Made by a program: the position numbers and the translations under genes. Positions 1,659 to 34,904 of a stretch of DNA of 64,000 nt are shown piece by piece. The number at the start of each line of letters is the position of its first letter. Position 1 is the stretch's first letter. Under the pieces are notes generated by a model. That model ran no database searches. It saw nothing but the letters and a program-made list of their open reading frames with translations, and had not been told where the DNA came from. Source of the DNA: Candidatus Obscuribacterales bacterium (lineage in GTDB: Bacteria; Cyanobacteriota; Vampirovibrionia; Obscuribacterales; Obscuribacteraceae); assembly GCA_965228855.1 (NCBI GenBank), contig CBDDIJ010000003.1, positions 1,728,001 to 1,792,000 of the forward strand. Reading direction: 5' to 3'.

Positions 1659-4600
1659 CTAAGGGGTCACGGTTCCATTGGCGCCATCACTACCGACCGT
1701 TCCGTCCAGTCCATCCGGGTTTCCGATCCCGCCTACACCAAGTGCCCCACCAAGACCACCGCTGGCTTCAACCAAACCGCCGAGCGAATTAGTAGAGGTA
1801 ATGTTGCCGCCGTTTCCGCCGTTGCCACCGTTACCACCATCGCCCGCCGCCGCTGAACCGGATGCGACACCGCCATCACCACCTGTGCCGCCGGTGCCGC
1901 CATCGCCACCCGAAGCCGTCGCGGATCCGCTCACAGTTACGACTGTTTTGCTTCCGAGTTTTAGAGAGCCAGCATTTCCTCCCAGCCCTCCGGTAGCTCC
2001 AGCCGTGCCTTCTGATGGTGCACCACCGGCGTTGCCGCCGTTGCCTCCTGCACCTCCGGCGCCACCAGCGCCGCCGTCAGTTACGATGTTGAAAATCGTG
2101 ATATCACCCTTAAACTTGTCCGCGGTTATTGTCCCGCCGGCTCCACCAGTGCCTCCCTGTGCAGAAGCTCCCGCCTGACCAGCATTGTGATTATTGGAAG
2201 AACCCGCAGCTCCACCAGCGCCGCCGCTTCCGCCAAGACCGCCAATAGCAATCAGGCCTCCCGCGCTTAAACTAGCAGCGGTTACCTTGATAGAACCCGC
2301 GGTACCGCCATTTCCACCAGCACTAGCGTTAGATCCGTTGCCGCCGGTGGCGGAGTCAAACGATGAGCCTCCGGCGCCACCATTGGCGCCGTCACCGCCA
2401 GAACCGCCATTGACATTTGAAGCGTTGATGTTTGCGGTGCCCTTCTTCGCGGAGATCGCCACAGTGCCACCGTCCCCTCCATCGCCGGAAGTTCCAGCGA
2501 GTCCGCCGCTTCCACCAATTGCCGGGAATGCACCAGCGTTGCCACCGTCGCCAGCGCGGCCGGCAGAACCGCCGTATCCACCGTTAGCTCTCGCCACGCC
2601 GGAAACTGTAATACTTCCTGATTTAGAGCTCACCTCGATGACGCCCCCCGCGCCGCCCTGGAGACCGGCAAAACCGTTTCCACCAGCTCCGCCGCTTCCC
2701 AAGCTTGCAGTTCCACCGGCGCCACCACTACCGGTGCCTGAAGCAGCGCTGCCGTCTGCTGCCAGAACCGAGACCGTAACATCGCCTGCGCTTTTTAATT
2801 TGACGGTTCCTCCCTTGGCGGAAGCGCCCACAGTACCGGCATCTCCGCCTCGTCCGCCGGTACCACCGACAGCGTCACCGCCTGTCCCTCCCGTCCCCGC
2901 AGAAGGAATCGAGGTTCCACCGCTTGCCGAAGCAGCAGCTAAAATTGTGATGTCGGGAGCAGTTTTGCCTTTGGTGGAGATGAAGATGAACCCACCGTCG
3001 GCGTTGTTGCCGCTATTGCCACCATTTCCTCCATTGCCTCCATCGATTGATATACCAGCTAGAGCGGAAGAACCATTGCCGCCAGCTCCGCCTGAACCTC
3101 CATTACCACCATCTGCGATGACATTTATCGCTTGAAAGGAGGAAGCGGAAATCTTGATTGTTCCAGCCATTTGAGCATTGCCACCGTTACCCCCCGCGCC
3201 ACCATTACCGGAGCTCGTTGGGTCACCGGAACTATCCGCAGCCGCACCACCCGCACCGCCACTTCCGGCAGATGAACTGGAGGCTAGCACGCTCCCAATG
3301 TTGATTGCGCCACCCGTAATTGTCACCGTGCCGCTAGCGCTAGACGCTCCAGCATTACCGCCGTCACCGCCATTGCCGCTCACGGCACTGTCGCTCACGC
3401 CGCCAGCACCACCGGCGCCACCATTTCCAGACTGTACACCACTGCGCCCCGCGTATAGGACGCCAGGAAGATTTATAGTAGGGCTGGAAAGAATTATAGA
3501 ACCGTTCTGACCACCTTGCAGAGAGTCGCCACCTCTGCCGCCATTCCCGGCGTTACCACTGCCGGCGTCCCCACCTGCGCCACCATCGCCGCCACGTCCG
3601 GAACTGCCGCCGCTCGCGGAAATGGTGCCAACACCAGTTATTGCACCACCCTTCTTGGAGGTCGTTATAGTCACGACGCCGCTTTCAGCACCGGCTCCAC
3701 CGACGCCTCCGGAACCTCCATCACCACCGTCGCCGGAAGGAGAGTTGACTCCGCCCCCTCCGCCAGTGCCGCCCGCACCGCCATCGCCAGCGCTCGAAAG
3801 TAATGCGGTTGCAACATTAATCGTTCCGGTGCCCGCACGCAAATTCAGATCACTAGAAGCTCCACCAGTGCCTCCTGCTCCGCCCTCTCCACCGCCGCGT
3901 CCAGTTCCATTCGCAGAGTCTCCTGAAGTGCCACCGTCACCACCGAGACCTCCGGTGCCTCCTTGTGAGACTACAAGTCCTGAGGAAATATTTCCGGAGC
4001 TGGATGTTTCCAACAGTATGGTGCCGCCTGCACCACCATTCCCACCGTCACCACCAGCGCCACCAGCTCCGCCTGTACTACTTAGACCGACACCACCATT
4101 TCCTCCATGCCCCCCGGCACCGCCAATTGCTCCTTGAGAGATCAAAGTAGAGGTACTGATCGTCCCTCCGCTGGATATAACAGATACCTCAGCGCCTGAA
4201 CCCCCAGCACCACCTGTTCCACCGTTGCCACCATCTGTGCCGGGCACATTGTCTACTCCCGGGCTGCCATTGCCGCCATTCCCACCCTCACCAGCTATAC
4301 TGATTGCGGCTCCGACGGATATGTCGCCAGTGGCGTTCAATATGATGCTACCTGAAGCCCCACCAATCCCACCGTTACCGCCATTTTGAGGACTTGCTCC
4401 GGCTCCGTTGGCGCCATCACCACCTGAACCTCCAATGGCTATGAGTGAACTTGCAGCGGCGTTTATCCCCCCTGAAGTTGCCGTAATAGTGATAGTTCCG
4501 GCATCTTGAGCATCTCCACCTGCGGCACCAGGAATGCTACCAGTCGCTCCGTCGGCGCCATTAGTAACGACAATTCCCGAAATTGAAACGTCGCTTGCGG

Positions 4601-6671
4601 TGATAACAAGATCTCCGCCCTTTTTACCTTCATTTACAGCATTGAGGGATGCCCCACCCCCAGAAATAGCTGCAGATCCGTCGGTCAGCATCGTCAAATC
4701 GCCGCCCAGCGTCACGGTTGTTCCCGTGCTAATACCTCCAGATGCCAGTTTTTTGGATACCTTGATAGCTGAACCGGAGTAGTTACCCGTGCTGTCGAAG
4801 GTGAGCTTGAGTTGCGCCTGGGCATTGATCAGGCTAACAGAGCCTACGGCTCCGGTGCCAGTTCCCTCTATAATGGTGCCCGTTGAGATCGCAACTGCAT
4901 TTTGTCCGCCAGCGATAACGGAAACCGAACCATTGCTTCCGCTGCCAAACCCGAAAGCGTTGATTGTTCCAACATCTACAACACCCTTGTCACCGCTTTT
5001 GTTGGCGAGCGCAATAAGGGTGACGTTGGCGCCAGAACCATTGGCGTTGTTGAAAAGTCCATCATCGCCGCTAGAGTCAATCGTTGAACTCGACAATAGA
5101 ATGCTTCCTCCGGTGGAGGAGACCTTGCCTACCTGGACGAAAGTGCCGCCTGCGATGGGGTTACCAATCGGGACTTGTGAAACAGGGACTGCGCCGTTGA
5201 TTGGTTTCAACGTCGCGCCGGCGATCATCGTTATCGTCTGCCCATCTCCTTCTACAGTTCTAGCAGTAATAGTCTTTGCGGTGCCACCGTCTGTGATATC
5301 ACCACTAGCGAGGATAGCAATCGCTTCTATAAAGGTAAGTGGACCTGTGATCGTGACATCACCACTATCGTTGAAAAATGTCGGGTCGCCAGTAATTACG
5401 CTCTGGCCAAGTTGCAAATTATCAGTAGATGCCCCAATGTGTGCGGTGCCGGCTGAGACTTTGAGCTCACCGGTGAGTTCACCGACAACACCATCAACGC
5501 TACCACTACCGGCGTTGACGATTAACTTCTTCGAAAAGTAATCACCGCCGGAAAGCAAGATGGCGTCGGTAGCACCGAAGCTGTTACTGCCGATTGTAAT
5601 GTCGCCATTGTTGGCCAAGAAAGCTCCGCCCGCTGCATCGATTGTCACCATATGAGGTGCTCCGGCCTGGAGTTGATCGGCAATGTTGATGTTGCCAGTG
5701 GATGCAACAATGGAGCCCGCATTCAAAATAGAGTTAGCTTGCAAGCTCACATTTGAACCCGATATGGAAGCAACAGTCGCTCCAGCCTTTTCAGGCGCAT
5801 TGATTATCGCGCCGCCGGCGATAAGAGTCACAGTGCCACCGCCGGTTATGTTACCGCTGTTAACTATATCTGTCTGAGCTATCAGATTCAAATCTAACGG
5901 ATTGGCTTCGGATGCCGAAGTTGCGATGCTACCTGTCGCCGAATTGCGAATGTGATTCGCACTAACCGTCGCCGCGGCGACCTGAGGGTCATGGGACAGA
6001 ATTACGAGGTTGCCTGCATTACGAAGATTGCCCGAGATGTCGAGTTGGTTCACCGAAGTGAAGTCACCGGTGACAGTGACATTCTTCGGGATATTCAGAC
6101 TACTGAGAGTTCCTACCGTGCCAGCGTCCAGGTTCAATGCGCCACCATTGGCGCTACCATTGTTCTGCAAACTGAGAGTCTGTCCGCCCTGCTGTAAAAC
6201 CTGATAAACAGCAGCCAACTCGGCTGCTGTCAGTTTAGTTCCGTTATCAACCAGGACGTCCTGACCTGCTCTGCTGATCGTGACATTACCGCTTAGATTC
6301 GAAATCGTGTATGAATCGCGCCTCGATCTCAAGTTTAAGTCAGACGGTAAGCGACTGAGATCGACCGATGTAATTCGCCGACTCGCACGCTCCGCGCTCT
6401 GGAAGTTCTGAATTGCTTGAATGGAACGGGCAGTGTCAAACTGCTTGTGGTTCTCCATCCGTATAAGCTTGTTTTCCCGGCGCGACGCTGTTGCACCCAT
6501 GTCCAGAATATTCTGAGCGCGTCCATGTCCACGTTCATTAGAAACTACCTTTCGGCTAGCATTCAGAATTGCGCTGTCAAAGGACTGCGGATGAGCAGAA
6601 GATGATTGAGCGAACAACGCTATGGATGCCAGAACCGCAAAAGTGTACGCACCCTTTTTAAACTTTCTCAT
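1659..6671 (-). CDS. Giant secreted glycine-rich protein (~1670 aa): haemagglutinin-like N-terminal module plus PGRS-like GGxGGxGG repeats
   Basis: ORF track gives 1659..6698. ATG 6671 (MRKFKKGAYTFAVLASIALFAQSSSA) is preferred because it matches the paralog start. The C-terminal ~1000 aa consist of about 17-18 units of Gly-rich segment plus short beta-strands. Confidence 0.85.
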   Translation of the reverse strand: MRKFKKGAYTFAVLASIALFAQSSSAHPQSFDSAILNASRKVVSNERGHGRAQNILDMGATASRRENKLIRMENHKQFDTARSIQAIQNFQSAERASRRITSVDLSRLPSDLNLRSRRDSYTISNLSGNVTISRAGQDVLVDNGTKLTAAELAAVYQVLQQGGQTLSLQNNGSANGGALNLDAGTVGTLSSLNIPKNVTVTGDFTSVNQLDISGNLRNAGNLVILSHDPQVAAATVSANHIRNSATGSIATSASEANPLDLNLIAQTDIVNSGNITGGGTVTLIAGGAIINAPEKAGATVASISGSNVSLQANSILNAGSIVASTGNINIADQLQAGAPHMVTIDAAGGAFLANNGDITIGSNSFGATDAILLSGGDYFSKKLIVNAGSGSVDGVVGELTGELKVSAGTAHIGASTDNLQLGQSVITGDPTFFNDSGDVTITGPLTFIEAIAILASGDITDGGTAKTITARTVEGDGQTITMIAGATLKPINGAVPVSQVPIGNPIAGGTFVQVGKVSSTGGSILLSSSTIDSSGDDGLFNNANGSGANVTLIALANKSGDKGVVDVGTINAFGFGSGSNGSVSVIAGGQNAVAISTGTIIEGTGTGAVGSVSLINAQAQLKLTFDSTGNYSGSAIKVSKKLASGGISTGTTVTLGGDLTMLTDGSAAISGGGASLNAVNEGKKGGDLVITASDVSISGIVVTNGADGATGSIPGAAGGDAQDAGTITITATSGGINAAASSLIAIGGSGGDGANGAGASPQNGGNGGIGGASGSIILNATGDISVGAAISIAGEGGNGGNGSPGVDNVPGTDGGNGGTGGAGGSGAEVSVISSGGTISTSTLISQGAIGGAGGHGGNGGVGLSSTGGAGGAGGDGGNGGAGGTILLETSSSGNISSGLVVSQGGTGGLGGDGGTSGDSANGTGRGGGEGGAGGTGGASSDLNLRAGTGTINVATALLSSAGDGGAGGTGGGGGVNSPSGDGGDGGSGGVGGAGAESGVVTITTSKKGGAITGVGTISASGGSSGRGGDGGAGGDAGSGNAGNGGRGGDSLQGGQNGSIILSSPTINLPGVLYAGRSGVQSGNGGAGGAGGVSDSAVSGNGGDGGNAGASSASGTVTITGGAINIGSVLASSSSAGSGGAGGAAADSSGDPTSSGNGGAGGNGGNAQMAGTIKISASSFQAINVIADGGNGGSGGAGGNGSSALAGISIDGGNGGNGGNSGNNADGGFIFISTKGKTAPDITILAAASASGGTSIPSAGTGGTGGDAVGGTGGRGGDAGTVGASAKGGTVKLKSAGDVTVSVLAADGSAASGTGSGGAGGTASLGSGGAGGNGFAGLQGGAGGVIEVSSKSGSITVSGVARANGGYGGSAGRAGDGGNAGAFPAIGGSGGLAGTSGDGGDGGTVAISAKKGTANINASNVNGGSGGDGANGGAGGSSFDSATGGNGSNASAGGNGGTAGSIKVTAASLSAGGLIAIGGLGGSGGAGGAAGSSNNHNAGQAGASAQGGTGGAGGTITADKFKGDITIFNIVTDGGAGGAGGAGGNGGNAGGAPSEGTAGATGGLGGNAGSLKLGSKTVVTVSGSATASGGDGGTGGTGGDGGVASGSAAAGDGGNGGNGGNGGNITSTNSLGGLVEASGGLGGALGVGGIGNPDGLDGTVGSDGANGTVTP

Positions 6672-6744
6672 CAATGCTCTCCAGCGTGACAGTCCCAAAT
6701 TTGACGACCGAGCGGACCCGACGCCAACATAAACAAGAATCAGA

Positions 6745-8393: not shown

Positions 8394-10268
8394 TTACTGA
8401 GCATCATATTTTCTCTGAAACTCGGCGAGCTTCGCTGGCATGTGAGTTTTAAGAAATTTTGTCGTTTTCTGAACGTCGTTCTTTGTTGCGGAATTATCCG
8501 GACCAAGCACCATCTTCGATACCAGCGTGGCCCTAATGTAGTGTTCGGCAGCCTCCTCGAACTTTCCTTCATGATGCAGGGCGCTACCTAGTTGCCATTC
8601 TGCCGAAGGAACAAACTCCGAGTCAGCATTCGGATAGAGCTTGTTCACGATCTCTAGCGTTTCCCTGCCGACTTTCTCAGCTTCCGAATACTGACCTAAG
8701 CCCTCCAGTGCCTGCGCCAGACGAAAGAGAGAAGTAACGGTGTAATCATGATACTTCCCAAGTACACGCTTCTTTATTGCCACAGCCTCGCGAGCATGTT
8801 CCAGACCCTGTTTAAACTGGTTTCGTTGATTGTAGATATCGCTCAACCACTCGTGAATAGAACCTCTATCAAAATCCTCGCGGTGTTGAAGATTTGCCTC
8901 CAATGCCTTGTTGAAGAATTTTATTGCAGTATCAAAATTTCCGCTTGTGCTGGAGTGTCTGGCAAAGTCCAGATATATCGCTTCTCTTTGAGCGATCGGC
9001 GCATTGTTTTTCTCTGCGGACCTGACCGCTTTCCAATAGAATGATGTAGCACTTGCAAAATTGTTGGGACCAAGAGACTTCTCGGTAGCGGCTTTGCGCG
9101 AAAGCGCTTCCCACTCATTCGGTAGGAATATGGGCCGAGCAATCGGATAGATGACAACGACGACAGCGGCAACAATTGCAAATACGATAGCAACGACTGA
9201 AATTAAAGCGAGTCTGAATACGCCGATCGATTTTTTCTGACGCCGTAAAACGGGCTTGGCCGAGGGATCTTCGATGCACTGCTTAAAGTCCTCAATTTTT
9301 TGCCAGCGGTCTTCCGGTTTCTTTTCCAAACAGCCTTGAACGGCTCGATGCAGGTTAGGAGGCCATTTGAAAGTAGAAAAATCAGGTGCGTCATTGACGT
9401 GAGACATCAAGGTCTGAAGCGCACTTTCAGACACAAAGGGCGGAAGTCCGGTTAAACATTCGAACGTCACACACCCCATTGAATAGATGTCGGAGCGTTT
9501 GTCAGCCCGCTTACCCAGGCATTGTTCAGGGCTCATGTAATTGGGAGTTCCGAAAACCTCACCGGTTTGCGTCAGATTAGCTTCCTTCTCCTCGTCGACT
9601 AATTTAGCAATACCGAAATCGACTATCTTGGCGGTTTCTTCACCGGCAGAATTTCGAGTAATGATGATATTAGCCGGCTTCAAATCGCGATGTATCACAC
9701 CGTTATCATGAGCGTGCTTCAAGCCATCACACACTTGAGTGATCAGCTTCTGCACACGTTCAACCGGAAGTTTTCCTCCAGCATTATCTATTGCATCCTG
9801 CAGCGAAATACCTTCAACGAAATCCATAACCAGGTACGGACGGTTTTGTTCGTCTTGCCCGAATTCGCGAACCGCAGCTATATTCGGATGGTTCAGGGCG
9901 GTAGCGGTTTTCGCTTCTTGCTGAAACCGCTGAATTCCTTTTGCATGAAGTTGACCACCGTGGATAAATTTGACAGCCACCACTCGGTCAAGGAGAACGT
10001 GGCGAGCCTTGTACACGGTGCTCATGCCACCACTGCCTAGTACGGATAAAATTTCGAAACGCCCCGCGATGGTGGTACCAACTAGTGCCTCTGCATCTCC
10101 AGTATCATCGGGTTCAGGGAATGAGAAGTTATCATTAGTCGCGAATGGATCAACAAAAGGGCTGACAGCAGGCGCCGGTTTTTGAACAGGACCATCGTCA
10201 ACATGATGGGGTGAGCCTTCGACGACAAACTTCAGATGTTCCTGCTGCTTAAGATCTTCGTCACTCAC
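8394..10268 (-). CDS. Hanks-type Ser/Thr protein kinase with transmembrane helix and C-terminal TPR repeats
   Basis: GSGGMS, VAVK, HRDLKPAN, DFG, GTPNYMSPEQ; hydrophobic LALISVVAIVFAIVAAVVVVIY; helical TPR-like repeats after it. Confidence 0.93.
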   Translation of the reverse strand: MSDEDLKQQEHLKFVVEGSPHHVDDGPVQKPAPAVSPFVDPFATNDNFSFPEPDDTGDAEALVGTTIAGRFEILSVLGSGGMSTVYKARHVLLDRVVAVKFIHGGQLHAKGIQRFQQEAKTATALNHPNIAAVREFGQDEQNRPYLVMDFVEGISLQDAIDNAGGKLPVERVQKLITQVCDGLKHAHDNGVIHRDLKPANIIITRNSAGEETAKIVDFGIAKLVDEEKEANLTQTGEVFGTPNYMSPEQCLGKRADKRSDIYSMGCVTFECLTGLPPFVSESALQTLMSHVNDAPDFSTFKWPPNLHRAVQGCLEKKPEDRWQKIEDFKQCIEDPSAKPVLRRQKKSIGVFRLALISVVAIVFAIVAAVVVVIYPIARPIFLPNEWEALSRKAATEKSLGPNNFASATSFYWKAVRSAEKNNAPIAQREAIYLDFARHSSTSGNFDTAIKFFNKALEANLQHREDFDRGSIHEWLSDIYNQRNQFKQGLEHAREAVAIKKRVLGKYHDYTVTSLFRLAQALEGLGQYSEAEKVGRETLEIVNKLYPNADSEFVPSAEWQLGSALHHEGKFEEAAEHYIRATLVSKMVLGPDNSATKNDVQKTTKFLKTHMPAKLAEFQRKYDAQ

Positions 10269-10353: not shown

Positions 10354-12120
10354 CTAGTTGCCGCGAGACTCCAATTCTCTTAAGTGTTCGCGAGCCTTCT
10401 CTGCGCGCGGATCACTGCTCGCACAAGCGTTCAAGAACTCATGCAGATTGGAAATTGCGCCGTTTCGATCGCCGTTCTGTTCCATCGCACGGCTCAAATA
10501 GAAGCGGGCATTAGCATCCTTAGGATCTATTTTTACCGCTTCTTTATAGGACTCGACAGCCGGTCCGACATAACCCTGGACAAGTAGAATAGAACCAAGC
10601 GTGGTGCGCGCTGTCACAGATTTATTATCTAAGCGCACCGCTTCCTTAGCCTGCGCGACAGCCTGATTGGTATCACCGGCACGCAGAAGTGCTGCGCTCA
10701 ACCGTTCTCGAAACTCCGATTTTTTCGGATAAAGGTCGACCGCTTCCTGCATGTAACGAACAGCCTCGTCAATTTTTCCAGCAGCAAGCGATTTGCTCGA
10801 CAACGTTTTCAATAAAGAAACGTCCTTTGGATTGATTCTATATGCATTTAGCAATTCATCCAAGCTGGCTTGCTTGTCACCGAGTTTATCTAAAATGCGT
10901 GCATGGTTGATGCGAAACAGCTCATCAGTAGGGCGAATAGCAATGGCTTTCTTATACTGTTCCGCAGCTCCTTGCCAATCGTCCTTCATGGTCAGCGCAG
11001 CACCATAGTCCGCAAGTGCATCCGCGTATTTCGAGTCGGCGGCGATGGCGAGTTTATACTGTTCCAGCGCCTCATCCACTTTTCCATCAGCGACCAGGTT
11101 ACTCGCCTTCAGGTAAGCACCTTCTGCAGAGAGAAACGACGTGACAGAACTTGGCAGATTCGCAACGCGCTCCACCGGCGGTGTTCCGAGCACGAGCGGA
11201 GTTCCCGTCCAGTTTGATTTCATTGCAGGAACTTGCTTCTTCTTCCAGCCGGCAGCGGATGTCTCAGCTTCGGTTTTCTGACGTGCAACGGCGAACGCTT
11301 TATCCAGCGAAATCAAACCGCCCTCCTGTCGAAGCGCGCTCGTCAGATTCTTCGAAAATGCACTGCTCCATGTTATTTCGTTGGGCTGGCTCGAAGACAT
11401 GATTATAAATCCATTGCCCAATGCAACTTTGCTTATATCAAGGTTGTAGGTCTGCGTGAGTGATTTTGCTCCAGACTCGAGTTCAGCCGCACCACTATAA
11501 GCAGATTGCAAAACCAATACGATTCTATCGCTCTTAACGTTCTGCTTAAGCGTCGTCATTAAGGTCTGCATCGAAATGCAAGTTCCATAAATATTGTCCA
11601 GCGCACAGTCATAAGCGCAAAGATATGTATTTCCGTCTGTAGTGGGAAACGCGCTTGTCGCCACATAAACGACAACGAGATCGTCCGGACCAACTCCGTT
11701 TCCCAGAAAGTTCGGACCAATCGCACTCATGATGTTCTGCTTGGAAGCATTTCCATCAAGCAACAATTTCACGTGCGATTTGTCGAATCTACCACCATTG
11801 GGGTCGACCAGGTAATCACAAAACTCTTTGGCCGACTGCGCCATGTCGCTGGCTTCAGCACCGCCGGGAGATAATCGACCTTCTTTGAACTTGGAGGCGC
11901 CAATCACGACCGCCCACTTCTGCTTGACGGGTCTGTTTGTACCTTTCGCGTTGGGATTGAGATCTTGGATCTTGGTAAACTCTACACCGCGCACCGTCTT
12001 TGGTGTCTGAATTTTCTCACCCGTAATTTCATCCTCATCGGCTTGCGCGAACGCGTAACTGCCCTGAAGTGCAAACACTGCCGTCAGCATCAATCTAGAC
12101 AGCCACTGAATACGGTGCAT
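10354..12120 (-). CDS. Exported caspase-fold (peptidase C14-like) protein with degenerate catalytic dyad and C-terminal TPRs
   Basis: Signal peptide ending AFA. KWAVVIGASKF, LLLDGNASKQNI, DLVVVYVATSA (normal His site), IVLVLQSAYSG (normal Cys site), QVP motif, then TPRs. ATG 12120 has a GAGG RBS; the ORF track starts at 12144. Confidence 0.85.
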   Translation of the reverse strand: MHRIQWLSRLMLTAVFALQGSYAFAQADEDEITGEKIQTPKTVRGVEFTKIQDLNPNAKGTNRPVKQKWAVVIGASKFKEGRLSPGGAEASDMAQSAKEFCDYLVDPNGGRFDKSHVKLLLDGNASKQNIMSAIGPNFLGNGVGPDDLVVVYVATSAFPTTDGNTYLCAYDCALDNIYGTCISMQTLMTTLKQNVKSDRIVLVLQSAYSGAAELESGAKSLTQTYNLDISKVALGNGFIIMSSSQPNEITWSSAFSKNLTSALRQEGGLISLDKAFAVARQKTEAETSAAGWKKKQVPAMKSNWTGTPLVLGTPPVERVANLPSSVTSFLSAEGAYLKASNLVADGKVDEALEQYKLAIAADSKYADALADYGAALTMKDDWQGAAEQYKKAIAIRPTDELFRINHARILDKLGDKQASLDELLNAYRINPKDVSLLKTLSSKSLAAGKIDEAVRYMQEAVDLYPKKSEFRERLSAALLRAGDTNQAVAQAKEAVRLDNKSVTARTTLGSILLVQGYVGPAVESYKEAVKIDPKDANARFYLSRAMEQNGDRNGAISNLHEFLNACASSDPRAEKAREHLRELESRGN

Positions 12121-12133
12121 TCTTAATCCTCGA

Positions 12134-13858
12134 TTACTTGCCATGGAAAAGTTCGATAGCAGCTGAAACCATTCCGCCTGCGCTTGTCGACGTCAGCCTC
12201 ACGAGGCTGCTATCGGTCGCTTTGTGGACTTGTGCCACCGCAGAAAAATCATCTGGTATCAAAGCTGGTTCGGGATCGTCCCACGACAGTTTCATACGCG
12301 TGGGGCAAAGGTCCTTGGCACCCGATTCATCTGGCGAGACGAACGCGGTGAGCGTACGATCTCTCAGAGAGTCCGGTGTCACGTCCACTTTTTCAGTGGC
12401 GAACACGAGACCAAGCTGTTCCGTCCCCGGATGTTCATCAAACTGCATCCAGCCGACGGCAGGTATCGGGTAGTCCTGCCCTTTTTTTAAATGATTCTGC
12501 GTTCCGTAGTCATTATTAGGAAACAAAACATCGCTTTTTCCGGTGGTTCCCGCCTTCATCACAAGATAGGCATAACCGTCATTTCCTGGGATGAGATGAA
12601 ACCTGATCGAATCTCCGGACTTAAATTGGGTTTTGTTATTGCAGCGATAGGTTTTTCCATCGCGATAAAGCTCAATCCAGAAGTTGATGCCTTGCGGTCC
12701 ATCAGTCGATGCGATCTTGTTTCTAAAGTCTGACGGTGCAGGCACCGCCGGCAGCGCCGCTATTTGCGCTTTGCGTCGGGACTCTTCCAGCTCCGCATCC
12801 GTAGGGAGTTTCGCTGTAGCATACTCCTCTCTGGATGCCACTACAGGCAGTTTCCCACCTGCTATGACTTTCGTATCGAGGGGGGCGACATTTCGGTCGA
12901 TCCAGGTCGTGACGAATTTCAAGTCATCCGGCTTGAATTGCCCCTTCTCAAAAATCAAGTGTTCGGAATTTTTGCTCAAAACCAGCTGCCGATTGGAGGT
13001 GTTCAAGCGCTCGAACAATTTCCATGTACCGGCGGGGCGAATAAGTTTATCGTTTGTTCCCTGCAAGAAAAGAACAGGAGTGTCTTTGACCATGGCTGCG
13101 GCGTTTAAGTTTTTCGACATGAATTCGTCAAACTGTACGAATTCTTTCGGCGCGAAGTCTGTCCTCATCAACGGATCGTTTTTCCACTCGCTGCGAAGTT
13201 CTTCGTTCAAAGAAATCTTTTGCACCGCAGACAGTGCCACATTGTCCATCTTTTTCCCGTAGCCACCAAAGATGGTGCTCAAGCCAGCCTTGAGTGCAAC
13301 CTTGGCTTCATCACCACTCATGCCGAATCTGTCGCGGGCGGGCACCGCCGCGACAAGTCCATTGATCAAGTCTGGGTAAAATGCACAAGCTCTCAATGCA
13401 ATTGCACCACCCATCGATTCGCCTAGAATAACTACCGGCACGCCTGGATGCTGCTTGCGAATGTACTCCAGTGCAGCTTTGATGTCGACAAGGCATCCGT
13501 CGAAATCCATGCTCGAGGTTTCCGCATTCGTCTTCAACTCACCGAAGCCGCGCAAGTCGATGGCATATGTGGCAATTCCGTCCTTCGCCATCTCTTTGCC
13601 AAACTCGGCATAGCAGCCTTTGTGCAAGCTGAAACCGTGAATGCACAGCAGCGCCACTTTCGGCTTATCATTGGGAAGCCACGAAACGCATTTGATGTCT
13701 TGCGGTTTCGCCGCGGGTGGACGCAAGGTTAGCGACTTTGCACCACTGTTTGCTCCGTCTGAAGACTCAGGAGCGTCTGCTTGTGCAAGAATCGGCTGAT
13801 TAAGACTAAAAACTGAAATAGCTGCAAGCGCGAGTTGTGTAGAAATTTGGATTTTCAT
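12134..13858 (-). CDS. Exported alpha/beta hydrolase (lysophospholipase/Hydrolase_4-like) fused to a C-terminal DUF4384-like domain
   Basis: Signal peptide; LLCIHGFSLH, DLRGFG, nucleophile GESMGG, LQGTNDKLI, SEHLIF; C-terminal FKSGDSIRFHL..DGYAYLV..VLFPN..GTEQLGLVFA. ATG 13858 is preferred to the TTG at 13897. Confidence 0.85.
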   Translation of the reverse strand: MKIQISTQLALAAISVFSLNQPILAQADAPESSDGANSGAKSLTLRPPAAKPQDIKCVSWLPNDKPKVALLCIHGFSLHKGCYAEFGKEMAKDGIATYAIDLRGFGELKTNAETSSMDFDGCLVDIKAALEYIRKQHPGVPVVILGESMGGAIALRACAFYPDLINGLVAAVPARDRFGMSGDEAKVALKAGLSTIFGGYGKKMDNVALSAVQKISLNEELRSEWKNDPLMRTDFAPKEFVQFDEFMSKNLNAAAMVKDTPVLFLQGTNDKLIRPAGTWKLFERLNTSNRQLVLSKNSEHLIFEKGQFKPDDLKFVTTWIDRNVAPLDTKVIAGGKLPVVASREEYATAKLPTDAELEESRRKAQIAALPAVPAPSDFRNKIASTDGPQGINFWIELYRDGKTYRCNNKTQFKSGDSIRFHLIPGNDGYAYLVMKAGTTGKSDVLFPNNDYGTQNHLKKGQDYPIPAVGWMQFDEHPGTEQLGLVFATEKVDVTPDSLRDRTLTAFVSPDESGAKDLCPTRMKLSWDDPEPALIPDDFSAVAQVHKATDSSLVRLTSTSAGGMVSAAIELFHGK

Positions 13859-14032
13859 GTCGCCCCAACTCCTGAGACCGTCGCCCAGAGCCTCCAAGCA
13901 GTCTCAAGTATACATTATAAGCGGCCTCGCTCCCGCATGTGACGAACTCGTGATTTCGCCGATAAAGTTCGTTGCCGCTTGGAAGCCTTATTGGGTATAA
14001 ACTTATAGATATTTTCTGTGGACCTTGACTAG

Positions 14033-15976
14033 ATGGCAAATTCGACGCACTCGATTGGTTTTCGCCGCTTAATGGACGCGGTCTTGAAGAACGTCAGCGA
14101 GCCTTTGCAGGCAAGGCTTTTCGATACCTGGATAGCTGGAGAGGAGACGCCCGACGCCGGACGGCAGATCGCGACAGACCTCCTCCTCATTGCCACTTCG
14201 CTGCATGTCAAGAAGCAAGGTTTGACTCACGGTCAATATGCATTCCTGGGAGATCTATACGACCATTGCCTGCACAAGGAGCCCGGAGGAACGGTCGATC
14301 AACATAAGAAACGCCTGATCGAACTGGTCACAGAAAACGAATTTTACTGGGAACCACCCATATCTTCGCTTAACTTACTGCGTGGTTATGATGCTGTTTC
14401 AAAAACAACCGTCGCGCCGATGTACAAAGACCTGTTGTTGAAGATCGTGACTGTCACATTGACTCACGTGGAAAAACCGACTGCGACAGACAATCAGATT
14501 CTGTCTGACTACGACCAACTTTGGACAGAAATAGTTACAGCCACGAGAACCCCAGCCAAAAGAGTGCATCCGGACAGTAGTCCGTTGATCGCGGATATCA
14601 ATAGAGCGGTTCTTGAACTGGTGGTTCCCGCTCGAGAAGTTATCAAGGCGGTTGATGAACTTCAGCGCATGCCGGGTTTGAAGGACACGGAAGGTTTTAT
14701 TCGTAAGAGCTTCACCAACTACTGTGCACAAGCGATTCTTGCTGACTCGCATGTAGACCAGAAAGAGCTTGAGCTGTTTTACGATCTCGCGCCGACCCTC
14801 ATGTTCTTTGGCAATCAGGGAAGTATTCAGAATTTGCAAGAGGCTTTTCAACGAGCATCGAAAAATATCGAACCTAACGAAACTCCGCTGCTCGTCAGTA
14901 TTCTCGACATGTACGACAGGTCGATGCACACCGAACTTGGTGCGCGCGCTCGCTCGTTGTATTTCAGACTTGCGAACACTGCATTCAAAGCAGACCACAC
15001 CGTCAGTGCAGACGAGCTGGTATGGCTGGAGAAATTCAAAGAAACGCTTTATCCGCACGAAACTTTAGAGCGTGTTGAAAAACTGGTTTCGGAAGACGGG
15101 ATCGAGAAACTACCTGAAAGACCGATCTTCGGCAACATATCGGTCGAACAGAGTCTTGCGGAACTAAATGCCAGTGTTGGAATGGAACGTGTTAAACAGG
15201 ATATGGCTCAGCTCGTGAATTTCATTAAAGTTCAACAGATGCGTGAGCAGAAAGGACTGCCCGGCTCGGGCGTGCCGAAACATTTTGTCTTTTGCGGTAA
15301 TCCTGGAACTGGAAAAACGTCCGTCGCTAGAATTTTGTCGAACATCTACAAAGCCCTCGGCATATTTAAAAAAGGTCAAATCGTCCAAGCCAGTCGCGCA
15401 GATTTGGTCGTAGAAGGGCATCCGGGTAAGAGTGCAGTGAAAGTCAAAGACTCTTCGTTCGCCGCAATCGGCGGCGTACTGTTCATCGACGAGGCAAATG
15501 AATTGCTGCTGGAGGGTGTTCAAGATCCACAAGGCAAAGAGGCTGTCGAGACACTAGTGAAGGCAATAGAAGATCGACCGGAAACGATTGTTGTAATTCT
15601 GGCTGGGCAGCAGGATAAGATGGAGCGATTTTTAAATTCGAATACCGCACTGAAAACCCGCTTCAACAAAGCGTTCTATTTTGACGACTACTCTCCCGAT
15701 CAGATGATCGAAATCTTTCGGTCGTTCTGCGATCGAGCCGCATTTCAGACCAGTCCCGAAGTCATGCGGCTAGTCAAATCTCTATTCGAACGGCTCCATG
15801 CCGAACGAAGCGGTGGATTCGGTAACGCCAAAGAGGTCAGGCGCATCTTCGAAAACATCATTGGCAACCAGGCAAACCGAGTTATTGCGCTTCTGCCGGT
15901 CAATGAAGAAATACTTTCGACAATTACCGAAGACGACGTACAGCCACTTCTAGCGGGTCTGAGCGTCAGGCAGTAA
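14033..15976 (+). CDS. AAA+ ATPase of CbbX/SpoVK type with N-terminal TerB-like helical domains
   Basis: Walker A GNPGTGKTS, Walker B VLFIDEA, GFGNAKEVR; N-terminal ADSHVDQKELE and ADHTVSADEL motifs. Confidence 0.85.
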   Translation: MANSTHSIGFRRLMDAVLKNVSEPLQARLFDTWIAGEETPDAGRQIATDLLLIATSLHVKKQGLTHGQYAFLGDLYDHCLHKEPGGTVDQHKKRLIELVTENEFYWEPPISSLNLLRGYDAVSKTTVAPMYKDLLLKIVTVTLTHVEKPTATDNQILSDYDQLWTEIVTATRTPAKRVHPDSSPLIADINRAVLELVVPAREVIKAVDELQRMPGLKDTEGFIRKSFTNYCAQAILADSHVDQKELELFYDLAPTLMFFGNQGSIQNLQEAFQRASKNIEPNETPLLVSILDMYDRSMHTELGARARSLYFRLANTAFKADHTVSADELVWLEKFKETLYPHETLERVEKLVSEDGIEKLPERPIFGNISVEQSLAELNASVGMERVKQDMAQLVNFIKVQQMREQKGLPGSGVPKHFVFCGNPGTGKTSVARILSNIYKALGIFKKGQIVQASRADLVVEGHPGKSAVKVKDSSFAAIGGVLFIDEANELLLEGVQDPQGKEAVETLVKAIEDRPETIVVILAGQQDKMERFLNSNTALKTRFNKAFYFDDYSPDQMIEIFRSFCDRAAFQTSPEVMRLVKSLFERLHAERSGGFGNAKEVRRIFENIIGNQANRVIALLPVNEEILSTITEDDVQPLLAGLSVRQ

Positions 15977-16110: not shown

Positions 16111-16947
16111 ATGAGTTACAGCGCGGCACTGACCGAGACACAAATATTCAGATCGCCCCTCAGGTATCCTGGTGGGAAACAGAAAGCGATGCATCAGATC
16201 GCTCCGATGTTACCTGCCAATGCGAATGAATATCGTGAACCAATGGTCGGAGGAGGCAGCGTTTATTTTCACGCAAGAAGTGTTGGCCTTGCGAACTCTT
16301 ATTGGATCAATGACCTCTTCTCTGAACTTGTCGCGTTCTGGCGATCCACCCAGGACCAGGAAACTTGCTTGCGACTCACGCAGGAACTCGAAGCCCTGCG
16401 AGCGTCGTTCAAATCAGTAAAGGACATAAAGCGCTTTTTTCTCAAGGCTCGAAATGAGAAGGTTAGCGATGACTATCGCGCGGCTTTGCTGTTTTTCTTT
16501 TTCAACCGGGTCACTTTCTCCGGCACTACGCGCGCCGGTGGCTTCTCAGCGGCGGCAAGTCTGCAGCGATTCACGCCTTCATCCATTGAGCGTTTGCATC
16601 CGTTGCCTGCCGCATTGAAAGATACGAAAATTACTTCGCTCGATTTTGAAAGCGTTATAGACGCTCCAGGGAAGGACGTATTCATTTTCTTGGACCCACC
16701 TTATTTCACGGCGACAAGACTCTACGGTCGAAGCGGTGAGTTGCACGAATTCGATCATGCGCGCTTAGCGCAAATTTTGCGCGCAAGCAATCATCGCTTT
16801 CTTGTCACTTACGATGACTGCGAAAAGATCCGCGAGCTTTATTCTTGGGCAAATATCAAACCCTGGGCGCTGCAGTATGGAATGAATAATTGCAATCTGG
16901 CAAACACCAGCAAGATTGGTTCCGAGATTTTTATTTCAAACTACTAG
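16111..16947 (+). CDS. DNA adenine methyltransferase, Dam/D12 class, apparently orphan
   Basis: SPLRYPGGK, EPMVGGGSV (motif I), IND, FLDPPY (motif IV), EIFISNY. Confidence 0.92.
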   Translation: MSYSAALTETQIFRSPLRYPGGKQKAMHQIAPMLPANANEYREPMVGGGSVYFHARSVGLANSYWINDLFSELVAFWRSTQDQETCLRLTQELEALRASFKSVKDIKRFFLKARNEKVSDDYRAALLFFFFNRVTFSGTTRAGGFSAAASLQRFTPSSIERLHPLPAALKDTKITSLDFESVIDAPGKDVFIFLDPPYFTATRLYGRSGELHEFDHARLAQILRASNHRFLVTYDDCEKIRELYSWANIKPWALQYGMNNCNLANTSKIGSEIFISNY

Positions 16948-21160: not shown

Positions 21161-24100
21161 TCAGTTTTTTGCGAACGCCGTGGTGCTCGGGCGCACTAGC
21201 TGTTTGTACTCGCTGCCACTCGGGTCAAGATGCATGTGAATTGCGACCGTCTTCATCAGGTGATTCGCAAGTTGCTTAGTGTGATGATGCTTCGATGCAA
21301 ACAACTGTTTGACCGGCATCACCGCACTGATTGCGTTCGGAATCGAGAATTCACTGGTGAACATCTTGGCATTACTGAAAGAATGTTCCTTCAGATTGCG
21401 GTGACCTATGAATTGAGCAGGATTGATATCGTCCATGGTGCGCACAGAATTGTGTGTAAGTAAAACGTGGTTACCTGGCGCCAACTTCACTTCGCGGTCT
21501 GCCACCGTTACTGATACCGCATTCTTATGAGCGTCGTCGATATCAAAGATAGCAACTCCATCTTTAAATGAAACCACGAAAACTACCGAATTGGCATCGA
21601 TGCGAATGTTACCGTGGGGCGTTTCAACTCTCGTGCTTACCGTTGGTGCAAACAATACTGCGCCCTTGTCTAGCCGGTGTGTGGAAGTCTCTGACTTCGT
21701 AAAATCCACGATTGTCGAAACATCCGACTTGATCTCCAGATCCTGATCGCAATAGACGATGCCTGGAATGTGTCCGCTCGAAAGTTCCGTCTCCGACATC
21801 CATCCGTCCCTCGGCTGTGTGCCGAAGTGAACCTGGCTTTCAGCCATACTGGAAAGAAGCTGACGTTCTAAGCCATTATCTTCTACAACAAGCTCAGCAG
21901 AACTAGTCGGGAACAAGTTCATCGAAGCACTCAAGTTCGCACTGTTCTGATTCGAGAGAATTGCAGCTTGCGGTGCGTCATGCGCAAACAATCCGCTGGA
22001 CAGTTGTGCTTGATTGCTCGTCAGTGCATCAAGGCGAGGGACGAAAGCTTCAAGCACAGTCGCGCCTGCTGTTCCCCGTCCTTCCGGTGTCGTCACCTGG
22101 GCGCTCCTCGAAGATGTCGCGGGTGAAGTCGGAAGTGATTGAATGGTTGAGGAAAAGGATTCGCTTGTCGAAGCAGACTGCGTCGAAGGGGAACTCGTTA
22201 TAGGCGGGTCCGCTGTAATGGAAGTACCACCACCTTCTACAGTGATTGCCTTCGCTGACTGCGTACCGGTGTTGAAGATCACACTCTTACCACCCAATAC
22301 GTTCATATCGATTGTCGGCGTTGATGCGCTGGTATCAGTGACGGTGATTCCGTTGGCACCAAAGAAGAAGGTGTTTGCCGGTAGCGGTGTTGTCACCGGA
22401 ACTCCGTCAACAGTAAACGTAACCCCTGTAGGCGCGGTTCCAGCTGTCGATGTCGTGCCACCTATCAAAATACTCACATCACCGCCTCCGAAACCGCTTG
22501 TGGCGATGTAAGAGCCGGCACCAATAGTGATAGTTCCTTTGGAAGCATTGTTGTTCTGCAGCGTAATGTGACCGTTGTTCGCGGTAATCAAGGCACCAGG
22601 GGCAGTCTCCAGGCTCTTAGCCGAAGTCCCTGTCGTGATGTCGACATCTCCATTGGCGGCACTGACGCTGTTGAGCGTGATCGAAGAAGCAACATCATTG
22701 ATTCGAACCAGAGTCTGTGAATCAGCAGACAGATTCGCTGCGCTCACTTGCAACGCAGCAGTCGTACCGATTCCACCCTGTGCCACCATTTGTAGAGTGG
22801 CGCCGCTAATCAGGCCACTGCCAGCGGTGTTGATATCTCCAAGTGAGTTCAGCGATATAAACGTCTTCTTCCCGCCGATGGCACTGGTGACATTGATGTC
22901 ATCCTGCGCGACAATCGAGATGACCTTGGATTTCGTCGAGGTGCTCGTAACGTTAATCGGCGATAAACCATCGCTGGAGATAACCGCTGTCCCGGCGTCA
23001 ATGGTCAGATTATCGGCATCAATCGAAAGCGGACTATCGCCGTTAAGGTTCTGCGCGACGACTCCCTTAGCAGTTAACACCATATTCGGTGCTGTAATCG
23101 TCCCCGTTGAAATAATATTTCCACCAGTTGCGCTAAACCGATTGGTAGCGCTCGAAAGAAGCGAAAGATTCAAATCTTTCTTCGCCGTGATGTCGACGTT
23201 TACGCCGCGCGCACCGACATTCGTCGCGTTGACGACAATTGGTGCATTCGATGCACCAACATCGCCGTTTATAGCTTGGAATTCAACATTTCGTCCGGTT
23301 ACAGTAGCCTTACTGGTTTGTCCAATCACGTCTCCAGTGCCAAATGTTCTGAATGTGAGATCAAGGGAACTATTACCGAATTTCTTCGGGACAATGACGT
23401 TTCCAATCCCCCCGGCTGCCAGCGTTATGAATCGAATGCCGGTCTTCGGCGTACTGAGCGCCGTCACATCACCACCGAAGTTTGTGATCGTGACACCACC
23501 GTTCACCGCACCAGTCACTATCGGGAAGCCTGCGATACCGTTGACCGGTTGAGTCTTACCTCCGATAGTCATAGTGTTTACCGGATCATTAGAGCCGAGG
23601 AGAATCTGACCACCGATGCCGTTCCCCTTGGCCGCAGCGCTGAGGGTGCCGATAATAGTCAAGTTACCCTGACCGTATGGTCCGCCGGCTACGAACTCAA
23701 GCGCGCCGCCGTTTCCATCGGCTCCAAAAATTTGATTAGAATATCCACTCGTGTCGACTGTGAGGTCGCCACCGTTGACGAATGAAAGAAATCCGGGACT
23801 ACCGGCAGTCGGTCCGCCTGAAATGTTGAAACTGAAGTGTCCGGCACTATTGGTGGTGTCAATGAAAGCGGGCGCGCTTCCTGTCTGCACAACGAATATG
23901 TTGCCACCGTCACCAGACCCCTTTCCACTTACATCGATCGCCAGAGCAGTTCCTGGAGTGGTACTCACCACTGAGCTACCTTGAAGCGCGATACTTGGTC
24001 CTTCGCCATCGGTACCCAGAGGTCCGAGGTTCAACTGAGCCTGATCAACAGCGAGAATGCCTCCCGTGCTGATATTCGTCGTACCACCCACGAGGTTGCC

Positions 24101-34500: not shown

Positions 34501-34695
34501 CTGAAATCCTTCGTTGTCGAAATTAGCTACGCAGCAGAGACTTCCGTCGGCCCTCCAATACCGCCATTCTCCGACCGGACACTCTTGCTTGCGTTTCTTT
34601 CCCCTAGTAATGGATTTCCCAAGTTGCCATTCGCGTTCCTGGCTCGACCATACAGCCTCTTGCGGCACACAACTTGGACGTTTGGGCTCGTTCAT
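31573..34695 (-). CDS. Multidomain protein: MORN-variant (YwqK-like) repeats, SMI1/KNR4(SUKH)-like segment and HEAT-like repeats
   Basis: GEWRYWRADGSL..DGVLERFHNDGTL; KIGGFGDSDY..VYYWSHD..LALTLDDF; helical C-terminal half. ATG 34695 has a GAGG RBS; ORF track start 34722. Confidence 0.7.
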   Translation of the reverse strand: MNEPKRPSCVPQEAVWSSQEREWQLGKSITRGKKRKQECPVGEWRYWRADGSLCCVANFDNEGFQDGVLERFHNDGTLASSGVWKKGSRFGHFVFVRSENPSDENYPSNDETWRYEFDSQANWEEKNMRWFLKDGTECTSDGRPLDSAYDLDTIIGAAEPDGYLEKYAANVADAIDPDRQQVHGEDLLQLKELWGVTAPEIDKFIKTASREACTFNLTTDRRMFDETNLWESLICHCWQNESEEIGSMFMGAVKIGGFGDSDYIYSTILRPLKEVPQPNAVYYWSHDTYHIDDVLALTLDDFAFRIAISDAVERERLSPAATRAAWQKLIGRCQTHWACTDGMDTVGEEEFGEDLDPKNSIRGLFWRAQWIVELLKEDDRRNWEDVKSCFYPNWNKVLDEEQFEVLLATGERLATTAVYLLWRFFWFKQTERLRKCCSAYGNHSARVVRDLVSLIEEIENGRTQIGKAISNIHEVREKFLSLDLAPERAGKREKEKTERAVADAERAQSIASAIAAELETVDEEEKLALILDRAWDSVKDDVTMAQLEKAARQLPGYELQWKSFDFIRDRGFVRDDCLIEDEATGVGHWLGQNKSEILQPFIWSSIYQDGPRMLGLMPIIGRTQGSLDLRLERWCLDELSHVEEYHHKREAAVQLLSLMGCDAVLPRLIEIIGEFEAEISTKEGYDIGLAAIPWDDFLCTISNTFVRFADSSNVTAIVSPETVCGALWKLLKFGLTNHNAKIASSAIVALSVWGETDLLEPIERLLRFNDDEAQIAAFRTLEILFSKPANSIPRKELPSEQHIRTFLALCFRNPSDDDNAVTLMFHRAALTLQQCFPDLVDADSISDAIELARELSNYGGDRWLNWRILECETVERFPELEIETIAPYLASANVSLRDAARTAYTARGITPPDEFPLYWPVIWKTLEGQDADSANQVVSQLMQRPDAVALSAAAGWCWANPGKDSAEVLSRIVSKKLDEFEPLQPGEYLPAELTWLVRALVRHDKFDVTKTVITRCSKFADENIVYAVEAERQLASGTGS

Positions 34696-34904
34696 ACTGA
34701 CCTCGCTACACGCGAACAACAATCATACGTTCCTATAACTGTATCCAGCGAGACTTTAGGGGGCTGAAACAGAAGTGCTACAAAAGCCCACCTGTTCTAC
34801 TCCGAAGCCGGCTGTCAAGAATATAAAGTTTTGACAACTTTTCACCGTTTTCCGTCACCAGGGTGAGAATATGTCAGAAGCCCGGCAAACTGTCAGGAGT
34901 TTTT

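Follow-up and report, generated by a model that had tools for sequence, protein, structure and literature searches.

To our knowledge, very few substrates of bacterial caspase homologs have been described, and for the domain DUF4384 we know of no function. Members of the caspase fold can act without catalysis, as c-FLIP(L), a cytosolic animal protein without tetratricopeptide repeats (TPR), works by protein contacts. In prokaryotes, excerpts of Klemencic et al. (2019; PMC6426788) describe pseudo-orthocaspases, in which TPR are found on one class of substituted His-Cys dyads and DUF4384 on another. For the active metacaspase AtMC4, extracts of the structural report (bioRxiv 10.1101/2020.03.09.983940) place Lys225 in the linker after the p20 region, where it sits in the S1 pocket (Asp137, Ser84) and represents the first self-cleavage site. 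The locus analysed here is a gene pair on the minus strand of a 64,000-nucleotide stretch of DNA (the window) from a Candidatus Obscuribacterales bacterium (assembly GCA_965228855.1, contig CBDDIJ010000003.1, positions 1,728,001 to 1,792,000), whose genome comprises 8.2 Mb in six contigs. The first gene (12134..13858, 574 amino acids from the ATG at 13858) encodes an exported alpha/beta hydrolase similar to monoglyceride lipase (MGL) and fused to DUF4384, the second (10354..12144, 596 amino acids) an exported Peptidase_C14 domain fused to TPR, which we call the pseudo-caspase. Export of both proteins was judged by eye from their signal-peptide-like N-termini. A preliminary description had noticed that the peptide SGAK[S/D]L occurs three times in this pair and proposed it as a shared protease cleavage or docking motif. 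We favour another explanation, to which we give about an even chance, namely that the peptides are three Lys elements that would have been inherited independently, with their exact identity in this genome being coincidental. These would be, first, the flexible loop behind the lost catalytic Cys in those C14 proteins that form a clade linked to the hydrolase, second, the flank on the C-terminal side of DUF4384 and, third, the boundary at the N-terminus of an exported MGL-like hydrolase. The cassette would likely function as an exported lipase/esterase together with a C14-TPR adaptor that is not catalytic. Judged from the alignments of relatives, each motif is an old hallmark of its own protein family and not a private repeat.

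The first copy of SGAKSLT covers residues 224-230 of the pseudo-caspase (11475 to 11455; tct gga gca aaa tca ctc acg), the second one residues 38-44 of the hydrolase (13747 to 13727; agt ggt gca aag tcg cta acc), and SGAKDL residues 512-517 of the hydrolase (12325 to 12308; tcg ggt gcc aag gac ctt). Re-reading of the sequence bore out the three peptides, their coordinates, their different codons and their common minus strand. It also agreed with the earlier placement of the first copy downstream of the degenerate Cys motif, 9-15 residues after the Cys equivalent A215 (LQSAYSG), and of the second copy between signal peptide and hydrolase fold. The assignment of SGAKDL to a DUF4384-like domain needs correction, as the Pfam envelope (residues 412-489) ends approximately 24 residues earlier and the peptide belongs to a conserved flank of this module. 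A crude proteome was made from 6056 open reading frames (ORFs) that do not overlap (2,421,062 residues). SGAKSLT was found in it twice and SGAK[SD]L three times, and every match falls into the hydrolase/pseudo-caspase pair. Some common 7-mer occurred in 5-12, or about 8, of 6055 random protein pairs, and 19 adjacent protein pairs have exactly one. The looser pattern G[AS]K.[LIV] gave 296 proteome matches, of which 0.14 are expected in the pair (Poisson P(>=3) = 4e-4); three matches were reached by 3 of 6050 adjacent pairs. Taken alone, the exact SGAKSLT repeat is within genome-scale chance and, therefore, its conservation in relatives must decide. That the repeat is without meaning at any level would accord with this genome-scale expectation, which leaves room for one common 7-mer and for three loose matches within two neighbouring proteins, but we regard it as hardly credible, because each site is near-invariant across 53-120 homologs. 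The loss of the motif in orthologs, which the preliminary description named among the refuting observations, was not observed, since a G[AS]K-type core is near-invariant at all three sites. On the evidence of these alignments, the G-[AS]-K-x-[LI] core is not a product of chance at any of them.

The first element belongs to a protein that has retained the caspase fold and lost its catalytic residues. The Pfam family C14 (PF00656) matches residues 76-311 (11212..11919; E 2.5e-10, 40.9 bits vs a cut-off of 21.4), a match that is missed unless the scan is restricted to the first 340 residues. The AlphaFold2 (AF2) model, with a mean predicted local distance difference test score (pLDDT) of 85.9, shows a caspase fold and then a TPR superhelix (residues 340-596; 10357..11127). 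When residues ~70-325 were compared by VIA-align, AtMC4 C139A (6w8r) was the best caspase-fold match (Z 22.3, root mean square deviation 2.4, 209 aligned), besides MALT1 (Z 22.2), GSU0716 (Z 21.3), caspase-8 (Z 20.6), Yca1 (Z 19.0) and the protease-like domain of c-FLIP(L) (3h13; Z 17.7). The caspase fold was recovered by VIA-align only and not by Foldseek, for which the matches listed with the full-length model against the Protein Data Bank (PDB) were only TPR proteins. Sequence searches of solved structures gave 0 matches for the pseudo-caspase domain and only DARPin noise for an intact C14 relative. The catalytic His is lost, as S164 (11653-11655) aligns with the His of the paralogs' S[ST]HG (column S 41, N 11, L 5, H 2 among 61 sequences), and so is the catalytic Cys, with A215 (11500-11502) aligning with the Cys of DxCHSG (A 37, C 12, G 8; n=61). 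The S1 pocket, defined by AtMC4 as the Asp two residues before the Cys (D137) and the Ser two residues before the His (S84), has Q213 (11506-11508; column Q 56, E 4, D 1) and A162 (column A 47, S 12) at the equivalent positions in the same alignment. The profile and the caspase-hemoglobinase fold of active C14 enzymes are thus present and the His, the Cys and the acidic S1 pocket are not, which agrees with the earlier call of a pseudo-caspase. The protein matches the pseudo-orthocaspases as defined in the excerpted text of PMC6426788, i.e. a prokaryotic C14/p20-type domain with a substituted His-Cys dyad. It differs from the TPR-bearing FS class of that account, because the dyad positions are S/N and A/G/C here, and it is unlike the pseudo-orthocaspases described there in being exported, in a fixed pair with a DUF4384-bearing MGL-like hydrolase, and encoded by non-photosynthetic Obscuribacterales. 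With c-FLIP(L) it has in common that both are caspase-fold pseudo-enzymes, but beyond the fold there is no sequence relationship.

SGAKSLT resides in the post-Cys loop of this domain (residues 219-230; 11455..11490, AAELESGAKSLT), the sole segment within residues 76-311 with a pLDDT <50; the peptide occupies 11455-11475 and K227 11464-11466, 12 residues after the position of the lost Cys. G[AS]K[SA]L is present in the loop of 18 of the 19 orthologs from related genomes and G[AS]K.[LIV] in 117 of 120 database homologs. In the 61-sequence alignment, G225 and K227 are each kept in 60 sequences and L229 in 56, while the residues after the motif differ in sequence and number between homologs. One homolog (P0226) has a post-Cys loop with three tandem copies of the motif, SGAKAL-SGAKEL-TGAKAI. 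AtMC4 is alike in having a conserved Lys after the strand of the catalytic Cys. However, going by the parts of the report cited above, its Lys follows the Cys at a distance of 86 residues and belongs to a large linker domain, in contrast to the short loop here, and the catalytic residues as well as the pocket Asp and Ser of AtMC4 are gone in the pseudo-caspase. By this comparison with the self-processing Lys225, the processing-type position that had been suggested for the caspase copy appears appropriate, as it lies in a flexible post-Cys loop. We predict that K227 is the retained counterpart of the self-inhibiting linker Lys that is cut first in active metacaspases; its role in the dead enzyme would be in regulation or in contacts with a partner.

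This prediction is in line with the C14 paralogs of the genome. The earlier proposal placed the active protease elsewhere in the genome, and the search for His/Cys-intact paralogs was successful: 13 proteins contain a C14 domain, and 9 of them kept both catalytic residues, among these the paralog at G000:C2:2127326-2129182. By eye, the N-terminus resembles a signal peptide in all 12 paralogs that were inspected. The K227 column is filled in 10 of the 13 paralogs, including 7 of the 9 intact ones, as [SA]-K-G-[LMI]-x-R, and DUF4384-C14 fusions with an intact dyad display EPGAK[SA]L at this position. Because intact paralogs and intact fusions fill the Lys position, the loop motif is, as read from these sequences, inherited from active ancestors. 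In a FastTree phylogeny of C14 domains, the hydrolase-linked members form one clade, with Q or E for the Asp of DxCHSG and with Cys-keeping members at its base. Among the 120 homologs, His and Cys were lost in different combinations, and the Lys loop is kept whether His, Cys or both are gone. One clade member (locus L134, 6584-8458) has the His (GTHG), the Cys (QACYSG) and a GAKSL loop; at this locus, hydrolase and DUF4384 are separate genes.

The second element is located at the N-terminus of the hydrolase, whose mechanical ORF begins at a TTG at 13897. The predicted signal peptide (residues 1-27, MKIQ...ILAQA; 13778..13858) was read from the sequence, and residues 4-19 form a helix in the AF2 model. 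It is followed by an acidic, variable leader of low model confidence (residues 28-40; 13739..13777) that ends in G39-A40, with K41 (13736-13738) being the next residue and the entire SGAKSLT spanning 13727..13747. The catalytic domain (residues 65-303; 12950..13666) matches Hydrolase_4 (PF12146) with E 1.9e-40, and the closest solved relatives are monoglyceride lipases (E 3e-17). In the alignment with MGL 3pe6, the Ser, Asp and His motifs of the latter are matched by GESMGG, GTNDKL and SEHL, and the corresponding S148, D270 and H300 are invariant in 53 sequences. Alpha/beta fold, the Ser of GxSxG, Asp and His are hence as in Hydrolase_4/MGL-like proteins, including the triad. In contrast to MGL, the present enzyme is exported, has an acidic leader ending in an invariant Lys and carries a DUF4384 module at its C-terminus. 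The AF2 model computed from the 53-sequence alignment (mean pLDDT 62.4) contains the alpha/beta fold and the DUF4384 core; residues 1-42 and 500-574 have a pLDDT <50, and residues 356-389 are also unmodelled. Therefore, K41 is placed at a boundary from disorder to order.

Conservation at this boundary is high. We found 233 homologs of the hydrolase; among the 53 aligned orthologs K41 is invariant, G39 is kept in 92% and P48 in 98%, and in 108 homologs with the anchor in the catalytic domain G[AS]K was found 97 times, other x-x-K forms 10 times and an absent N-terminus once. The exact GAKSL is rarer, as only 5 of 16 family orthologs have it, and orthologs combine GSKQL, GAKTL or GSKEL at the hydrolase N-terminus with, by contrast, GAK[SA]L in the caspase. 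The charge changes at the Lys: the 12 residues before G[AS]K include 311 D/E vs 24 K/R of 1156, the 12 residues after it 226 K/R/H vs 36 D/E of 1164. Distant MGL-like paralogs without C14 neighbour and without DUF4384 have GKELRLPIYYW, SKELNIPTYEW or TKALGFPTYEW at the place of K41. Two further cassettes of hydrolase and pseudo-caspase, at G000:C3:528575-532182 (L049) and G000:C3:2284086-2287941 (L054), the latter without DUF4384, raise the pair to three paralogous copies in the source genome, and both carry Lys motifs of their own, one at the N-terminus of the hydrolase and one in the loop of the C14 domain. In the further cassette with DUF4384, the N-terminal motif is GAK[TM]M in 8/8 members of the genus, in the third cassette, whose hydrolase has no DUF4384, it is [VI][VI][RK][GAP]KG in 7/7 loci.

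The third element is part of the DUF4384 module. Its core (residues 412-489; 12392..12625) belongs to DUF4384 (PF14326; E 5.1e-09, 36.5 bits vs a cut-off of 27) and was modelled by AF2 as beta-strands with a pLDDT of ~60-80. A sequence search of solved structures with the DUF4384 region gave one match at E 0.27, which is unusable. SGAKDL (12308-12325, with K515 at 12314-12316) lies inside a conserved C-flank block of approximately 30 residues (504-535; 12254..12349, TAFVSPDESGAKDLCPTRMKLSWDDPEPALIP), for which the pLDDT is 27-39. G[AS]KD[LI] was found here in 16/16 family orthologs, and G513, K515, C518, T520, L524, W526 and D527 are invariant in 53 sequences. The expectation that the motif is conserved within otherwise variable linkers is not borne out for SGAKDL, because it is part of this conserved block. 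We considered a disulfide between C406 (in the core, RCNNK) and C518 (in KDLCPT), both invariant in the orthogroup, which could staple the C-flank to the core; it was rejected, as the second Cys is absent from the paralogous cassette and from split forms. The protein ends in a C-terminal module (residues 550-574, SSLVRL...AAIELFHGK; 12137..12211).

The same architecture exists outside the hydrolases. Residues 395-574, searched against 1.84 billion representatives, yielded 907 proteins at E <= 1e-3, many of them stand-alone DUF4384 proteins of 250-350 amino acids. In 34 aligned stand-alone proteins, a signal peptide and a short acidic stretch precede G-A-K-G-[LM]-F with an invariant Lys, then follow the core, G170-S-K172-D173-L174, in which all residues except the Ser are invariant, a long low-complexity linker and a conserved C-terminal module, whose VTVV..DP..VLA.D..L.H terminus is matched by the C-terminal module of the hydrolase. 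G[SA]KDL[IV]P is also present in these stand-alone proteins, and in kinase-DUF4384 and tandem DUF4384 proteins every core is flanked by [KR]D[LIW] on either side. Among 130 representatives with a recognisable core, 64 have both flanks, 24 the N-flank only, 30 the C-flank only and 12 neither, so that the C-flank matches in 94 of 130. The core of the present protein scores above the curated cut-off of a family that, in the excerpted literature, is fused to orthocaspases, kinases and other proteases. The Pfam model, in contrast, stops ~24 residues before the G[SA]KDL flank and contains neither the N-flank nor the C-terminal module. In a sample of the full-text DUF4384 literature, we found no description of the flank motifs. 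We predict K41 and K515 to be elements at the domain boundaries of the hydrolase and the DUF4384 fold, respectively.

The similarity between the N-flank of stand-alone DUF4384 proteins and the hydrolase N-terminus could also be read differently. The hydrolase GAK might be a displaced DUF4384 N-flank, behind which the hydrolase was inserted. Together with the C-flank, it would then form a pair of similar edge strands by which the domain is closed. Such a clasp agrees with the stand-alone proteins, where an acidic stretch and GAKG[LM]F follow the signal peptide and GSKDL[IV]P follows the core, with the presence of both flanks in 64 of the 130 representatives, and with the near-likeness of the two flanks in distant members ([AS][KR]D[LM]F[FY]). 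However, where the genes are separate, EEGAK is retained by the hydrolase and a basic N-flank is found on the DUF4384 protein itself, the hydrolase of the third cassette has the Lys motif without DUF4384, and AF2 did not pair the N- and C-flank segments. The split-gene forms and the third cassette led us to down-weight an insertion into the N-flank, and we consider the clasp unlikely.

The constant neighbourhood of the two genes raises the question of docking, the second possibility named in the preliminary description. The hydrolase and C14-TPR genes stand side by side in 16/16 genomes with aligned loci, and translational coupling is suggested, because the hydrolase stop and the pseudo-caspase ATG overlap by 11 nucleotides (12134-12144, ATGGCAAGTAA). 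In the case of docking, the Lys peptides of the hydrolase would bind uncut to the groove or the TPR of the pseudo-caspase and thereby assemble both proteins, with the loop of the pseudo-caspase as a competing pseudosubstrate. TPR domains are peptide binders. The strictly conserved adjacency with its overlap, the long TPR superhelix in the model and the conserved block 500-574, which AF2 did not fold on its own, are consistent with this scenario. But Q213 and A162 replace Asp137 and Ser84, which hold Lys225 in AtMC4, and because of this canonical Lys docking in the pseudo-caspase is improbable and the Lys binding envisaged for its groove is disfavoured. Furthermore, the motifs also exist in proteins without such a partner. 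We consider docking very unlikely.

More weight has to be given to the idea of one processing code, which we rate as a tentative candidate with clearly less than an even chance. It assumes that the exported His/Cys-intact C14 paralogs recognise G-[AS]-K as P3-P1; the Gly-Ala/Ser-Lys motifs are possibly cut sites for these caspase-like proteases of the genome. Cuts after K41 would remove the acidic propeptide and mature the hydrolase, after K515 separate the core from the tail and after K227 open the loop of the pseudo-caspase, while the active relatives would carry the same site as self-inhibiting and self-processing Lys. Several observations fit: the invariant Lys after G-[AS] in flexible segments, with K41, K227 and K515 all being conserved basic residues in or beside segments of pLDDT <50; the switch from acidic to basic residues at K41; the position of K227 in the post-Cys loop of a domain whose best caspase-fold match, AtMC4, first cleaves itself at a Lys of the linker that follows p20; GAKG[LM] being common to intact paralogs and DUF4384 N-flanks; the 9 of 13 intact C14 paralogs and the 12/12 inspected ones that look exported; and the tandem motif copies in one homolog's loop. 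Moreover, DUF4384 is repeatedly joined to protease domains in the excerpts available from Kato (2022), PMC6426788 and PMC8283722, the latter reporting it on 23 cyanobacterial orthocaspases.

Other observations speak against such a code. C14 enzymes generally accept both Lys and Arg, but the Lys is seldom replaced by Arg (1/61 in the loop, 0/53 at both hydrolase sites). The C-flank Lys is absent from DUF4384-C14 fusions, the wider DUF4384 family is best conserved on the prime side ([KR]D[LI][FY]), as expected for a strand, and stand-alone DUF4384 proteins would have to shield their Lys-rich linkers. Among 79 stand-alone DUF4384 loci, 61 have no C14 gene within 6 kb. In favour of the code, 17 have one, often directly downstream, but owing to the kinship of these genomes this number cannot be taken as independent evidence. 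Hydrolase paralogs that are not linked to C14 show a similar N-terminal K-x-L-x-x-P. An acidic stretch with G[AS]K after a crude signal peptide was found in 6 of 1667 proteins, two of which are the two hydrolase-DUF4384 paralogs. The enrichment of the motif in exported C14/DUF4384 proteins that had been proposed as a check was not seen proteome-wide, as GAK[SDA]L has 15 matches, with 3 in the pair and 1 in the hydrolase of the paralogous cassette. A network version of the code, which we judge possible but doubtful as a whole, goes further. DUF4384 modules, bracketed by G-[AS]-K, would be dedicated substrates or adaptors of exported Obscuribacterales C14 proteases, and a periplasmic zymogen cascade would be regulated by the dead C14-TPR protein, itself cut in trans. 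Generally, the original proposal of a shared cleavage or docking motif is supported with regard to the conservation and the existence of intact paralogs, but not by the missing proteome enrichment, the family-specific character of the motifs and their occurrence without the partner.

Our preferred reading of three independently inherited Lys elements also faces objections. Each of the three Lys is found within or right next to a segment that AF2 modelled with low confidence (up to residue 42 and residues 500-574 of the hydrolase, residues 219-230 of the pseudo-caspase), yet they are near-invariant. Near-invariance at such places commonly points to a functional linear motif and not to a packed structural element. 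The form G-[AS]-K comes back in two families whose members are often fused to or encoded beside each other, as seen in the 17 of 79 DUF4384 loci with a C14 gene within 6 kb. The loop of intact paralogs, GAKGM or SAKGI, can be compared with the GAKG[LM]F of stand-alone DUF4384 N-flanks, and the three tandem [ST]GAK[AE][LI] copies in the loop of one homolog point in the same direction. The acidic leader ending in Lys looks like an activation peptide, judged by its composition. Finally, the structural roles predicted for K41 and K515 concern places in or beside segments that were modelled at low confidence.

Several loci of relatives and genes of the window deserve mention. At seven loci (L084, L109, L111, L113, L116, L121 and L122), a stand-alone DUF4384 gene is divergently oriented beside a cassette of hydrolase-DUF4384 and pseudo-caspase; in 6 of these 7, a His/Cys-intact C14 gene of ~840 amino acids (DTCYSG...HKG[LMI]xR) is located downstream, directly or ~2.4 kb off, whereas L121 ends too early. 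A few stand-alone DUF4384 loci are titled as other phyla; we did not use them as cross-phylum evidence, since labels of metagenome bins can be unreliable. In the window, two Ser/Thr kinases are encoded on the minus strand at 8394-10268 and 51287-53158, one with a transmembrane segment and TPR, one with leucine-rich repeats. The first is directly downstream of the pseudo-caspase and has a strong match at this place only in the nearest relative, two other loci being weak. An AAA+ ATPase (14033-15976, plus strand; AAA, AAA_lid_6), whose N-terminal region of ~400 amino acids has no Pfam match, also adjoins the cassette in the nearest relative only. Kinase and AAA+ neighbours were, therefore, rejected as conserved partners, being confined to the nearest relative plus the two weak kinase matches. 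The plus strand further encodes a D12-class (Dam-type) adenine methyltransferase (16111-16947) and, at 62921-64000, a gene that runs off the window (610 amino acids in the genome), in which TPR are fused to another MGL-like hydrolase domain, a different joining of TPR and hydrolase. The minus-strand ORFs 21161-31153 (3330 amino acids), 1659-6698 (1679 amino acids) and 31573-34722 (1049 amino acids) gave no Pfam match at the thresholds used.

The cassette provides three defined invariant lysines together with nine intact exported C14 paralogs in one genome. If the processing is true, a prokaryotic C14 network would process a secreted hydrolase and a dead relative of its own proteases. If it is false, two family definitions are still refined, i.e. 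that of DUF4384, where the Pfam model omits the conserved flanks and the C-terminal module, and that of a C14 clade defined by a conserved post-Cys Lys loop, which has outlived the loss of catalysis.

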